DNA from: Promethearchaeota archaeon
Lineage (GTDB): Archaea > Asgardarchaeota > Hermodarchaeia > Hermodarchaeales > Hermodarchaeaceae
Assembly: GCA_048939625.1 (NCBI GenBank)
Contig: JBHLPH010000001.1
Location: 1-64,000, forward strand
Direction: 5' to 3'
DNA: 64,000 nt
Positions 46,202 to 54,438 of this stretch are shown piece by piece. The stretch's first letter is position 1; the number at the start of each line of letters is the position of its first letter. The position numbers and the translations under genes are program-made. Under the pieces are notes generated by a model. The model made no database searches and was not told the DNA's origin. It worked only from the letters and a program-made list of their open reading frames with translations.

Positions 46202-46753
46202 GTGAGTATGCAGCCTTTAGAACACCTAGTGAAAGAGCACCGATTAATTGCTCAGGCAGTCAATGTCACAAAGAGTTTTCGCAAAGAGATTGCTTCTGGT
46301 AGCCCCATTCGACCACGCCGTTATTGGTGGCTCATTGATTTTTGGAGCACCTATGCAGATCTGATTCACCATGGAAAGGAAGAACAATGGCTTTTCCCTT
46401 ACGTAATAGAGCATGGAGGGAGCGCTGAGTTCGGAGACACCATAGATAAGTTAGTGGAGGAGCATATGTACCTTCTTGCATATATTGCAGAACTTCGCCG
46501 ATTTGCACGTCCAATGTTTACTGGAGAACCTTCGGCTCGCGAGAGAGTTATCAGCTGTCTTGATAGGTATGTTGAACTCATCCAACCTCATATCAAGTTA
46601 GAGGATGAAGAACTCTTTCCAGCTGCCAATCAACTCCTATCAAAAACTGAATTGGATGAATTAGCCAAAGAGTTTAAGGCAAGGGATGCACGAACGGGGA
46701 CAAAAGTACAAATCTATTATACCGATCTGGTAAACAAACTACAGGAAAAGTGA
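46202..46753 (+). CDS. Hemerythrin-domain protein
   Basis: EH, HHGKEE..LFP, EEH, HIKLED..LFP. Confidence 0.9.
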   Translation: MSMQPLEHLVKEHRLIAQAVNVTKSFRKEIASGSPIRPRRYWWLIDFWSTYADLIHHGKEEQWLFPYVIEHGGSAEFGDTIDKLVEEHMYLLAYIAELRRFARPMFTGEPSARERVISCLDRYVELIQPHIKLEDEELFPAANQLLSKTELDELAKEFKARDARTGTKVQIYYTDLVNKLQEK

Positions 46754-47181
46754 AAACCATGGCTCACGACCGTTTGATCGAACTGCTTGAAACCCAACTC
46801 ACCTTAGAAAAAGAATCTGCTCGAGCCCTTCGGAAAGAAATGGAAGACATTGATCATTTGGGAATCAAAATCCTCTTTGAAATCTGTGCAGCAGATTCCA
46901 CAAAACACGCTAGCATGGTACAAATGCTGCTTGATGCTTTGAAGAACGAACCGAAACTCAAAGGGCCTGATGAAAAGACCTATGTGAGTACATGGAAACA
47001 GCGGAACCAAGGACTTGAAGCGATTAAACAGCACATTGACCGTGAAGTGAAGATGATCGAACTCCTTAAGGATGAAATTCTCGCTACCGATGACAAAGTC
47101 CTAAAGACGATTCTCAAACACATCGTCAAAGATGAAGAACGTCATCACAGAATCCTTAAAGAAGAAATTTGGGAGCTCTAG
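46750..47181 (+). CDS. Ferritin-like (rubrerythrin-type) protein
   Basis: E...DSTKH / E...DEERHH di-iron pattern. Confidence 0.8.
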   Translation: MKTMAHDRLIELLETQLTLEKESARALRKEMEDIDHLGIKILFEICAADSTKHASMVQMLLDALKNEPKLKGPDEKTYVSTWKQRNQGLEAIKQHIDREVKMIELLKDEILATDDKVLKTILKHIVKDEERHHRILKEEIWEL

Positions 47182-47252: not shown

Positions 47253-47684
47253 GTGAACACCATGTCCGAAGGTCCTCACAAAGAACTACTCGAAATGATT
47301 GCACGGGCAATTAAAATTGAAAAGAAAGCCGTTGCGCTTTACAAAGAAACTGCCGCAACTATAGATAATGCTGCAGTTAAGCTTCTGATTGATGAGCTTG
47401 GTATGGATTCGGGTAAACACGCAAAGATGTATCAAACCGTTGAACGTGTCCTCAAAACCCAGCCATACTCATTCAAAGATTTTCATGAAGAGAAATGGAC
47501 GGATAAGTTGGTTGCCAAACGCGACCTCAAACAGCATATTGAAGTTGAAAAACAAATGATCGAACTTCTGGAAGAACAAATCAAAATCGCCAAGCAACCA
47601 ACAGTAAAAGCCATCCTTGAACACATACTTGAGGATGAAAAACGCCACCACAAAATCCTCATGCAAGTCATTGGCGAGCTCTAA
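47253..47684 (+). CDS. Ferritin-like protein (paralogue of the preceding gene)
   Basis: IEK...DSGKH / VEK...DEKRHH. Confidence 0.82.
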   Translation: MNTMSEGPHKELLEMIARAIKIEKKAVALYKETAATIDNAAVKLLIDELGMDSGKHAKMYQTVERVLKTQPYSFKDFHEEKWTDKLVAKRDLKQHIEVEKQMIELLEEQIKIAKQPTVKAILEHILEDEKRHHKILMQVIGEL

Positions 47685-50044: not shown

Positions 50045-50614
50045 TTAATGATCAATGAGTTCTTGGAGTTTATCCTGGATTTCTTGGGCGAGTGGATGAT
50101 TAGGTTCTTTTTCTAAAAGCTGTTGAGCACGTTCTAGGTCATTGATGGCATCGAAGATAAAACCCGTTTGGCGTTGATGGATAGTTGCAGTCTTGTAGAG
50201 TAGTTCGATAGCCATTGACTCTTGTTCCAAAGCTAAGGAAAGATCGATGGCGTTTTCAACAGCTTGGGTAATATTAATCCAAATATCCTGGTTTTTATCG
50301 CGAACCGCAAAGAAGGAATTGGCAGCCGCCAGAAAAGAATCACGGGCGGCTTCTTGGCGACCAGCCTTTACCTCATATTCAGCGACTCGGAGATAACTTT
50401 TTCCAGCTTGAAGTGGAGCCTCAGCCGCGGTAAATCCAGTGGCTGCGTGGGACCAGAGCTGTTCAAGCTGATTCGTTTGTTGTGCCGCTTCCAGTTTTGC
50501 AGAGGCATTTTCAAATTCCGCGAAGGCGAGTTCGCGTTGCCCTTGGCGAATGAAATCCTCCGCATTTTCAAGATGTGCTTCAAGAACTCGGCGAAGGTCC
50601 TCTTCTTCGTTCAT
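50045..50614 (-). CDS. All-helical TPR-like protein resembling alpha-SNAP
   Basis: AGKSYLRVAEYEVKAGRQEAARDSFLAAANSF has the SNAP helical-repeat pattern; GGAGG SD. Confidence 0.62.
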   Translation of the reverse strand: MNEEEDLRRVLEAHLENAEDFIRQGQRELAFAEFENASAKLEAAQQTNQLEQLWSHAATGFTAAEAPLQAGKSYLRVAEYEVKAGRQEAARDSFLAAANSFFAVRDKNQDIWINITQAVENAIDLSLALEQESMAIELLYKTATIHQRQTGFIFDAINDLERAQQLLEKEPNHPLAQEIQDKLQELIDH

Positions 50615-50744
50615 GATTATCCTCCTTTACAAGGTGGGGTTAGTTACCCTTCCTACAAATAGGTATGGTGTCAGTCGTAAACATCAAATAAAAGAAAAGG
50701 GGAGGTCTGCATAAGAGAAAATACGATCCACGAAGGGAACTCCT

Positions 50745-51836
50745 GTGACACGAATTTGGTTTGATCCATTAACACCAAAACAAGCATTGTTTTGTAGTAA
50801 AATCGGTGAACGATTTGAGACTCAAGGCTTTGATGTCATTTACACCACACGCGATTATCCGGAGGTCACAGGAAAACTTAAACTATTAGGGTTATCCGCT
50901 GAGGTGATTGGAAAACATGGGGGAGCGGATCGCTTTAAGAAATTAATTGCGAGTGCAGAAAGAATCAAAGCCCTTGCTGAGTATGTCAATTCGAAGGCAA
51001 TAGATCTCGCCTTTAGTTTTGCATCTCCTGAAGGGGCGCGGGTTGCTTATGGATTGGGAATACCATATTTCACCGCGAATGATTCACCGCATTCACGTTT
51101 TGTAGCGAATTTGACAATTCCTTATGCTATATCATTATTTACACCCTGGATAATGGTACAGATTTGGTCGGATTTCGAAGTTTCCCCTCACCGAATCATT
51201 CCGTATCATGGACTGGATCCAGTCGCTTGGTTACAGGATTTCACTCTGGATACGAAAGTGTTTTCCGAACTCGGATTGTCACCAAATTCGGAGTACGTGG
51301 TCATTCGCCCAGAAGAGACTCAAGCCTCCTATTTGCATGAACATGCGAATGAACGAGAACCGGTTACGAATCCAGTAATCACAGCCATCGCAAAGGAGTA
51401 TCCCGCCCTCAAGATAGTTGTCTTATGCCGGTATCCTGGACACCGTAAAGCGACACGTGAATGCTTCGGAGATTCCGTAATAATCCCAGATGGTGTTGTT
51501 GACGCTACTAGCCTACTCTCTTCAGCTCAACTTCTTGTGGGAGCTGGCGGAACGATGAACCAAGAAGCCAGCCTTCTCGGAATCCCTGTCATCTCTTGTT
51601 TCCCCGGTGACCACTTGGCTACTGATCAATTCCTTGCGAAAAAGAAACTATTGTACCGAATTCTGAATCCCGACGATGTTGCTCGGAAAGCCGTAGAGAT
51701 TTTAGGTAATATCAAAGAATTCAAGGATGCCCATAGAAAACGTGCACAGAAACTAATGCAAGAAATGGAAAATCCAGCTGAAATTATCTACACTCATCTT
51801 TTATCGTTTGCTACTGAGAAACTAAAAAAGTCTTGA
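50745..51836 (+). CDS. DUF354 GT-B-fold protein
   Basis: IWFDPLTPKQ, IGKHGG, SPEGARVAYGLGIP, GAGGTMNQEASLLGIP. Confidence 0.85.
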   Translation: MTRIWFDPLTPKQALFCSKIGERFETQGFDVIYTTRDYPEVTGKLKLLGLSAEVIGKHGGADRFKKLIASAERIKALAEYVNSKAIDLAFSFASPEGARVAYGLGIPYFTANDSPHSRFVANLTIPYAISLFTPWIMVQIWSDFEVSPHRIIPYHGLDPVAWLQDFTLDTKVFSELGLSPNSEYVVIRPEETQASYLHEHANEREPVTNPVITAIAKEYPALKIVVLCRYPGHRKATRECFGDSVIIPDGVVDATSLLSSAQLLVGAGGTMNQEASLLGIPVISCFPGDHLATDQFLAKKKLLYRILNPDDVARKAVEILGNIKEFKDAHRKRAQKLMQEMENPAEIIYTHLLSFATEKLKKS

Positions 51837-52892: not shown

Positions 52893-53942
52893 ATGATACA
52901 TTATCTGTATCATTTTCACAAAAGCGGACTCGTTTTGACTTCTATCGGATTTGGGTCCAAGGAAATGAGTGTAAGTCCTGAACTCGTCTCAGGATTTTTG
53001 TCAGCCCTACGAATGTTTGGACAGGACCTCTTAGCCGATGACGTCACAACCATAGAAACCGGTAACTTCCAGTTTGTATGGGACCTTGCCGATCCAGTTC
53101 TCAGCGTAGCGCTGGCTGACCGCGAAGATGATGATGTTGCGATTATGGCGGTTTTGAAAACACTGAACGCCCTATTCTTGGATCGTTACCAAAAAGAACT
53201 TCGCGGCTGGACTGGAGAGGTAGCCCTTTTTCGAGAATTCAATCCTGTTGCACGAGAGGTCGTACAGGACTATTTGCCTACCTTTGAAAAACCACAAGAT
53301 AGTGAGTTAAGACCTGCGATAATCCGGCTCTGGCGCCGCTTTGGACCCGGTCTAGATATTCTATTGTATGGACTGCTTCGAGGTGTCCCGATATTAGCTG
53401 TGGGGCGCAAATCAAGGAATCAATCTGTCATTCGTGCACTCCAAACCCTGCGTCGACGACGAATTCCCGTCATGTATTTCAACGATGCTGGAGCAGCCCT
53501 CCAAGTTTTACAGGATCGACCTGCAAATGTGTCCTTCATTCTAAGTCTTCCTAATCGGGCGTATGAAGACACCTTTGCAGATTCAGCTACAATGGGAATT
53601 CGATATGTCTGCTTATTGGTAGAAGAGCACATTGTATTACCAGTAGGTTTTGAAGCCAAACCCTTGGGTATCTCAGACAATGTAGCTCACGCTGAGAAGA
53701 TTTTAGGTCAAAGCGGTGCAGAGCTTCGTAACATCGCAGAAACTGCATTTATGACTATTTGGAACCGTATTGATGAAGTAGCAAATCTACTTGCTTATTC
53801 GGAAGCCATTCCAGATGACGAAGCAGCTCAACTTTTACGATTATCCAAGAACGATTTTTCCATCTTCAAAGAATTAGCAGTAGAAGGGGGATATGTACGG
53901 CGTGTCGGAAAAAGAGCCGATCAACAAAAACGAACGGAATGA
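52893..53942 (+). CDS. Longin-domain protein with a DENN-like middle domain
   Basis: YHFHKSGLVL...LVSGFLSALRMF (longin-type N-terminus); LLYGLLRGVPILAVG helix-strand motif. Confidence 0.65.
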   Translation: MIHYLYHFHKSGLVLTSIGFGSKEMSVSPELVSGFLSALRMFGQDLLADDVTTIETGNFQFVWDLADPVLSVALADREDDDVAIMAVLKTLNALFLDRYQKELRGWTGEVALFREFNPVAREVVQDYLPTFEKPQDSELRPAIIRLWRRFGPGLDILLYGLLRGVPILAVGRKSRNQSVIRALQTLRRRRIPVMYFNDAGAALQVLQDRPANVSFILSLPNRAYEDTFADSATMGIRYVCLLVEEHIVLPVGFEAKPLGISDNVAHAEKILGQSGAELRNIAETAFMTIWNRIDEVANLLAYSEAIPDDEAAQLLRLSKNDFSIFKELAVEGGYVRRVGKRADQQKRTE

Positions 53943-54438
53943 AGAAGACCCTCTGAGTTTTGAAAAGGTTCATGCCCTCCCCAAACGGTATTTCGAGTTA
54001 ATGAATTCAGGCAGTCAATTAGCCAAACATGGCAAGTTTGAAGAAGCGAAAACACAATTTGCTGAAGCTCGAAAGGAAGTAAGACGGATTATCCAACAGC
54101 TGTTGGAGATGCCAAAGACGAGTTCAGCTCGGATGTGGCAGTTCTTTGGTGTCCTTTGGGCCTTCAAGCTTATTAAAAGCGTGTTTTACTGGTTCCTAGC
54201 AAAAAGTGAAACCGTTGAGACAACTAAACAACGCAAGGAAATCCTAATGGCAGCAGTCGGGGCTCAGCAGATCGGAGCTGATTTGATCCCAGCCTTTGAG
54301 ACCCTGAATCAGAGTTTCAAGGGAGAAGACCTTGACCTACTCCCAATGCTCGGAGAAGCGATTCGAAATTATGAAGAGCGACAACGGATTTTGGTAAAAG
54401 CATTAGAAGAACAGGGACTAGATTTTCGGTTTGAATAG
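53893..54438 (+). CDS. All-helical TPR-like hypothetical protein
   Basis: GSQLAKHGKFEEAKTQFAEA; overlaps the end of the upstream gene. Confidence 0.6.
   Translation: MYGVSEKEPINKNERNEEDPLSFEKVHALPKRYFELMNSGSQLAKHGKFEEAKTQFAEARKEVRRIIQQLLEMPKTSSARMWQFFGVLWAFKLIKSVFYWFLAKSETVETTKQRKEILMAAVGAQQIGADLIPAFETLNQSFKGEDLDLLPMLGEAIRNYEERQRILVKALEEQGLDFRFE

Follow-up and report, generated by a model that had tools for sequence, protein, structure and literature searches.

A short SNAP-like helical protein from a narrow clade of Asgard archaea

SNAP, NSF and the SNAREs are characteristic of membrane traffic in eukaryotes. The basic residues of SNAP face the acidic SNARE bundle, and an acidic C-terminal tail with a penultimate Leu (L294 in alpha-SNAP; an LL end in Sec17) stimulates the NSF ATPase. 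Heimdallarchaeia are reported to have SNARE-like proteins, and Cdc48-type ATPases are common in archaea. The residues by which alpha-SNAP contacts the SNAREs are the basic R116, K122 and K163 and the hydrophobic L197, L198 and Y200 (PMC6457932). The N-terminal hydrophobic loop of SNAP, between alpha1 and alpha2, is described as inserting in the membrane (PMC5540461, PMC8143792). According to a 2026 preprint, the SNARE complexes of Heimdall archaea resist murine NSF; an archaeal Cdc48-like disassemblase is proposed there, its adaptor is not named, and the disassembly of archaeal SNARE-like bundles is explicitly left open (10.64898/2026.10.19.760048). The searchable literature on Asgard archaea, Lokiarchaeota and Heimdallarchaeia yielded no account of SNAP-like proteins in archaea, and SNAP goes unmentioned in the main text of two structure-based surveys of Asgard proteomes from 2026.

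Here we describe a SNAP-like gene in the window (the whole stretch of DNA analyzed, 64,000 nucleotides of a Promethearchaeota contig). The gene lies on the minus strand at 50045..50614, an open reading frame of 189 codons, and its 189-aa product (P0001) is acidic, with a computed pI of 4.6 and a net charge of -17. A GGAGG (50625-50621, minus strand) stands 6 nt ahead of the start codon ATG, and further upstream the same strand carries two TATTTG boxes (50690-50685 and 50661-50656). All three lie in the 130-bp region (50615..50744) between the gene and a DUF354 gene transcribed divergently from it, a region whose sequence suggests a promoter role. The SNAP-like gene runs opposite to all its neighbors, converging on a DegT-type aminotransferase gene on its other side, and is thus a single-gene (monocistronic) unit. 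An overlapping plus-strand reading frame (50264-50662) was considered and is unsupported as a gene. The SNAP-like gene itself is genuine, and purifying selection on it is strong (dN/dS of 0.06 and 0.13 against its closest orthologues). Homologues in public data form 41 clusters with full-length members of 177-226 aa, and every named cluster comes from 'Promethearchaeota' (Asgard) metagenome-assembled genomes.

The likeness to SNAP was proposed earlier on the strength of a 32-residue stretch of alpha-SNAP, said to align without gaps. The stretch was quoted correctly: the HMMER alignment to the alpha-SNAP of the PDB contains exactly this string, paired without gaps with AGKSYLRVAEYEVKAGRQEAARDSFLAAANSF (residues 70-101), at 8 of 32 positions identical. 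Yeast Sec17 is closer over the same segment (12 of 32). The match falls within a longer block, residues 47-101, that comprises helices 3-5 (codons at 50312..50476, minus strand) and is the core of the sequence signal held in common with alpha2-alpha4 of alpha-SNAP and Sec17. The same block also aligns to two other Asgard SNAP-like families discussed below, one of Atabeyarchaeia and one represented by a paralogue in the same genome.

Among Pfam families only SNAP (PF14938) exceeds its cut-off on the protein (34.2 bits, E 2.5e-8, cut-off 25), pairing residues 17-185 with profile positions 2-163 of 282; no TPR_x family was reported in that search at E<=10. All 22 members of the family examined match PF14938 (best E 5.8e-11). 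Generic TPR profiles appear among them below threshold, TPR_12 in nine (best 8e-5) and TPR_2 in five, so that SNAP stands ahead of generic TPR in each of the 22, and the earlier note's doubt that generic TPR families might score equally well or better was not borne out. It should be noted, however, that PF14938 is leaky. It gives matches in 10 of 14 control genomes of well-known prokaryotes, over the cut-off in two, and many TPR clusters of archaea (Bathyarchaeota, Methanobacteriota, Thorarchaeota) carry its label. On this model a plain TPR protein of the same genome scores 45 bits, against 173 bits on TPR_12. Because it cross-matches prokaryotic TPR proteins, PF14938 alone is insufficient, and the test was therefore run also in the reverse direction.

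For this, a profile built from the alignment of the family (A1) was used with HMMER in an exhaustive search, without length limits, of 1.84 billion representative proteins. Outside its own family it found only eight weak matches. Three of these are annotated as SNAP: two genuine alpha-SNAPs of Rhododendron, in which the N-terminal part is duplicated, and one archaeal protein of 1334 aa. The other five are long multi-TPR proteins. In the best single stretch, over 91-162 profile positions, the SNAPs score 26.9, 26.8 and 24.6 bits; the multi-TPR proteins, whose totals are sums of many short repeats, score 8-15 bits over 26-79 positions. The strong TPR protein of the same genome scored -2.8. In 200 shuffles of the SNAP targets the highest scores were 4.2-6.1 bits (4.2 for the target whose real score is 26.9). 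Positions 17-178 of the profile align in one stretch to plant alpha-SNAP, with helices H3-H8 in the order of alpha2-alpha7 over ~160 positions; the later helices thus keep the SNAP register, as the earlier note had read them. In the HMMER alignment the family motif DAIxxLERAQxLL falls on QAIVYYERAADLF of plant alpha-SNAP. Against solved structures, the profile's seven best PDB sequence matches are without exception alpha-SNAP or Sec17, each marginal alone (E about 0.05).

The AlphaFold2 model, made without templates, has a pLDDT of 96.1 and nine helices (residues 3-23, 27-43, 47-63, 67-83, 87-102, 109-128, 132-150, 153-167 and 176-188). A Foldseek search with it, the comparison to Sec17 that had been suggested as a check, places Sec17, alpha-SNAP and gamma-SNAP at the top (TMq 0.62-0.71, rmsd 3.2-3.9 Å, up to 21% identity). 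LGN, kinesin light chain (KLC), NASP and designed TPR proteins fit the model at TMq 0.2-0.5 and rmsd 8-15 Å. In VIA comparisons, Sec17 superposes on 184 of the 189 residues (Z 16.0, rmsd 3.7 Å) and gamma-SNAP on 181 (Z 15.4, rmsd 3.7 Å), vs. rmsd of 6.5-8.8 Å for ordinary TPR proteins. The VIA Z-scores do not part the SNAPs from LGN (17.2, ranked first), NASP and KLC (15-17, and 14-17 across the canonical TPR scaffolds); rmsd alone does. The longest VIA superposition is offset by one hairpin from the sequence alignments, and the structural register is to that extent ambiguous. Such ambiguity is usual in repeat proteins.

The SNAP family (alpha-, beta- and gamma-SNAP, Sec17; PF14938; 1qqe, 2ifu, 3j96, 9cru, 9nlu) is therefore the best match to the protein in both sequence and structure. 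As modeled, the protein forms a flat twisted sheet of antiparallel helical hairpins, like SNAP, with the helices in the order alpha2-alpha8 over about 160 residues, and the two have motifs in common (A-G-x-S/A-Y/F-L ... A-x-x-Y/F-L/V-x-A-A/G-N-x-F; DAIxxYERA). It differs from SNAP in length (189 vs. about 290 aa), in being acidic overall, in having an extra N-terminal helix and in being archaeal. By its predicted fold it belongs to the wider TPR clan, and it shares helix-turn-helix repeats with canonical TPR scaffolds such as LGN/Pins, kinesin light chain, NASP and the designed CTPR proteins. These, however, form a superhelix that fits poorly as a rigid body, and their Pfam families are insignificant on the protein. 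The resemblance to SNAP exceeds the generic TPR likeness, in sequence and in the modeled fold. Profile searches run both ways and the fold support the description of the protein as alpha-SNAP-like.

On the sequence register the protein corresponds to alpha1-alpha8 of SNAP plus one extra N-terminal helix. The C-terminal bundle that binds the N-domain of NSF (alpha10-alpha14) is absent: the protein ends after helix 9, and the Pfam match stops at profile position 163 of 282, in agreement with the earlier observation that the NSF-activating region is missing. The exhaustive HMMER search, which set no length limits, returned no longer form of the family. The acidic tail with its penultimate Leu is absent as well; the C-terminus, KLQELIDH, lies at the end of helix 9. 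There is no hydrophobic membrane loop in the protein, the turn between H2 and H3 being short and polar (AAQQT, residues 43-47); at this turn HMMER opens a 7-residue insertion in plant SNAP, and in the A1 alignment the family consensus is polar and variable. In alignments to plant and mammalian alpha-SNAP, R116, K122 and K163 map to Q131, E137 and E178 (at the low identity of these alignments), and the positions of L197, L198 and Y200 fall past the end of the protein. A string resembling the VCP-interacting motif (R-x5-AA-x2-R) was also looked for by eye; the nearest one, R91-DSFLA-AA-NS-F, fails.

The genome, which is 88% complete, has nothing over the cut-off for the SNARE domain (PF05739), and its three Cdc48/VAT-type ATPases are all on contigs (C42, C34 and C53) other than that of the SNAP-like gene. 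Since what links SNAP with NSF, membranes and SNAREs is missing or replaced, and no SNARE domain was found in the genome, the proposal that the protein is a precursor-like adaptor for AAA+ disassembly is not supported. The distribution points the same way. Among 400 Asgard genomes the family is found in only one family-level clade of two genera, in 15 of 19 genomes including the one described here, with marginal matches only elsewhere. In the four clade members that lack the gene, the locus is at a contig end (two genomes) or missing as a whole (two); as it is cut or unassembled there, these cases show no true absence. The limitation to one family-level clade makes 'precursor' unlikely and favors a derived, lineage-specific protein over an ancestral one.

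Both genera have the gene order DegT> <SNAP-like (DUF354)> surface protein> longin-like> helical protein>. Unrelated flanking genes over more than 15 kb are equally collinear in both, and the conserved neighborhood was therefore rejected as functional evidence for the SNAP-like gene: it is plain collinearity. The DUF354 gene (50745-51836, plus strand; 181 bits) is present at the locus in some genomes of the genus and missing in others, where the surface-protein gene directly adjoins the SNAP-like gene. A longin-like gene lies 2.3 kb from the SNAP-like gene (52893-53942, plus strand; 349 aa; Fuz_longin_1, a weak match at E 0.0035). Across the genus the N-terminal 100-106 residues of its product are 85-91% identical, a higher conservation than that of the SNAP-like gene. 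It overlaps by 50 nt a gene (53893-54438, plus strand) whose 181-aa product is helical and has a hydrophobic segment. The two products were considered as SNARE-like partners and rejected, having no SNARE match and no significant Pfam or PDB sequence match. Since the whole region is collinear over more than 15 kb, the nearness of the longin-like gene is no evidence of a functional link. Elsewhere in the window, two tandem genes on the plus strand (46750-47181 and 47253-47684) encode paralogues of 143 aa with about 30% identity between them; both are conserved in a relative (G007), and the DxxKH...DExRHH that they share suggests four-helix proteins of a ferritin-like or rubrerythrin-like kind.

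Two further SNAP-like families occur in Asgard archaea. The first, a family of 350-aa proteins in Atabeyarchaeia and Njordarchaeia, is represented by a minus-strand gene in a complete genome (L013:1806-2858 = G029:C1:1118806-1119858; alignment A2). It looks like a full-length SNAP, apparently including the C-terminal bundle. It scores 61.8 bits on Pfam SNAP, its profile matches alpha-SNAP in the PDB at E 8e-9 vs. 3e-3 for the best generic TPR, and its AlphaFold2 model (pLDDT 93) spans the whole chains of gamma-SNAP and Sec17 (275-290 columns, TMt 0.62-0.73). R116 and K122 of alpha-SNAP align in it with E and Q, and the acidic C-tail is absent. The family is found in three of the three genomes of one family, among the 400 Asgard genomes. 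Its gene converges with a KaiC-like ATPase gene. A C-terminal motif of the family resembles that of Sec17 but is only a lead, as it lies in a part left unaligned by HMMER against plant SNAPs. A longin-like homologue 5.5 kb from the gene is a longin+wHTH protein beyond unrelated TldD/PmbA genes, and was rejected as a sign of linkage. The second family is represented by a distant paralogue (BLASTP E 1e-4) in the genome described here, encoded on the minus strand at C34:80763-82040 (L016:679-1956). In this 426-aa SNAP+Ig protein a SNAP-type domain (27.7 bits) at the N-terminus is combined with a beta-sandwich at the C-terminus that matches TRAPPC13_C and adaptin-C2 weakly. A Cdc48-type gene lies about 6 kb from it on contig C34.

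The three families have the block of helices 3-5 in common, all match PF14938 above the cut-off, and each has its own narrow range of lineages. By hhalign, the family profile matches that of the Atabeyarchaeial family with a probability of 82% (E 1e-5), which is credible only for residues 39-103; beyond residue 103 the alignment opens a 13-residue gap and then skips one helix, which makes no structural sense, and it was left unused. Compared with the Atabeyarchaeial proteins, the protein described here lacks a C-terminal bundle and is a far weaker match to alpha-SNAP; compared with the SNAP+Ig family, it has no beta-sandwich domain. Its family is the shortest of the three and stands alone.

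How might such a protein work? We consider it somewhat probable that it is a lineage-specific, stand-alone binding scaffold of the SNAP type that recruits no ATPase in the SNAP manner and has a different, probably basic, partner. It would be a soluble acidic sheet of helical hairpins matching the N-terminal substrate-binding domain of SNAP and Sec17, most likely serving as a passive protein-binding scaffold or a chaperone-like adaptor. It may grip a helical or extended segment of its partner along a conserved surface, for which helices 3, 5, 7 and 8 with the AEAP, VRDKN, ETG and PNHPL loops are candidates, and would do so without recruiting an AAA+ ATPase and without binding membranes. The last of these loops, PNHPL (residues 171-175, between helices 8 and 9 in the model; codons at 50090..50104, minus strand), has no counterpart in SNAP and is a candidate contact site. 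It hardly varies in the family: in the A1 alignment P171, H173 and L175 are invariant, and N172 and P174 stand in 90% or more of the rows. That only the substrate-gripping sheet is kept, with its surface re-charged, leads one to expect a different and probably basic partner, the basic nature being suggested by the net charge of -17. The class II type-III-secretion chaperones IpgC and Scc3, which are likewise small, acidic proteins of all-helical repeats, offer a plausible functional analogy, in which a client segment would be held in a groove. Their fold matches to the protein (Z 11.6 and 10.5) are much weaker than that of SNAP, cover 127-135 residues and come without sequence similarity, and we know of no archaea with type III secretion.

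Three other accounts of the protein deserve comparison with this scaffold. It could be an ordinary repeat protein of the TPR clan, its SNAP likeness being a matter of convergence or shared TPR ancestry and PF14938 merely the best-fitting Pfam model for Ala-rich, loosely packed archaeal hairpin repeats. We regard this as unlikely but as carrying appreciable weight. Repeat folds converge easily (PMC13734099). The cross-matching of PF14938 to prokaryotic TPR proteins, including the one at 45 bits in the same genome, fits it well, as do the language-model look-alikes of the protein, mixed archaeal clusters from several phyla that bear TPR_12/TPR_2 and SNAP labels alike. (Coming as they do from several archaeal phyla, these look-alikes also indicate that SNAP-type repeats are not confined to Asgard archaea.) To these can be added the faint TPR_12 matches in nine of the 22 members, the first rank of LGN by VIA Z-score, and residues 51-84, which, read directly from the sequence, fit the canonical TPR pattern W4-L7-G8-Y11/A20-F24. 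It is harder to reconcile with SNAP scoring above every TPR family in all 22 members, with single-stretch reverse scores of the SNAPs about twice those of generic TPR proteins and the strong TPR protein of the same genome below zero, or with rmsd of 3.2-3.9 Å to SNAPs vs. 6.5-8.8 Å and a helix order of alpha2-alpha7 kept over 160 positions. We infer that the protein and SNAP descend from a common ancestor and did not converge inside the TPR clan.

A far more doubtful idea is that the protein is a primitive but working SNAP-like adaptor that brings helical-bundle complexes (SNARE-like or other membrane complexes) to an AAA+ ATPase of the Cdc48/VAT type. The domain retained is the one with which SNAP grips the SNARE bundle, the genome has three Cdc48-type ATPases, the Heimdall preprint (10.64898/2026.10.19.760048) leaves room for an adaptor, and there is a longin-like gene 2.3 kb away. 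But the C-terminal bundle, the acidic tail and the penultimate Leu are all missing, the SNARE-contact residues have become Q, E and E with the overall charge reversed, no SNARE domain is over the cut-off in the genome, the Cdc48 genes are on other contigs, the family is in one family-level clade, and the longin synteny is whole-region collinearity among close relatives. We think still less of the possibility, drawn by analogy, that the protein serves the neighboring cluster for cell-surface glycosylation (GNAT, DegT aminotransferase, DUF354 and an anchored N-glycosylated surface protein) as a dedicated chaperone or scaffold and keeps a hydrophobic client soluble. The gene does lie between the DegT and the DUF354/surface-protein genes in every family genome examined, with or without DUF354, and the product is small, acidic and all-TPR like IpgC (Z 11.6) and Scc3 (Z 10.5); however, it is transcribed opposite to the cluster, the synteny of more than 15 kb carries no specific signal, and a gene in one clade offers no independent lineages in which co-occurrence could be seen.

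In closing, we prefer the view that this is a derived scaffold built on the SNAP fold. Asgard archaea have a SNAP-type sheet, different from ordinary TPR, as a protein on its own. The case also teaches that a Pfam SNAP match or a SNAP-like fold need not mean a SNAP job, and that a SNAP annotation in prokaryotes should be trusted only after TPR families have been compared. The protein, being narrow in distribution, derived and truncated, says little by itself on eukaryogenesis; for the origin of SNAP, the Atabeyarchaeial family is the better candidate. A more speculative thought, which we hold to be improbable, is that this protein and the other Asgard SNAP-like families are what is left of an ancestral adaptor system of archaea, whose SNAP-type sheets gripped helical bundles on behalf of unfoldases of the Cdc48 type; the protein would then be the substrate-binding module, acting alone or with a separate ATPase-binding partner. 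If true, the origin of the NSF-SNAP-SNARE cycle would become testable in archaea.
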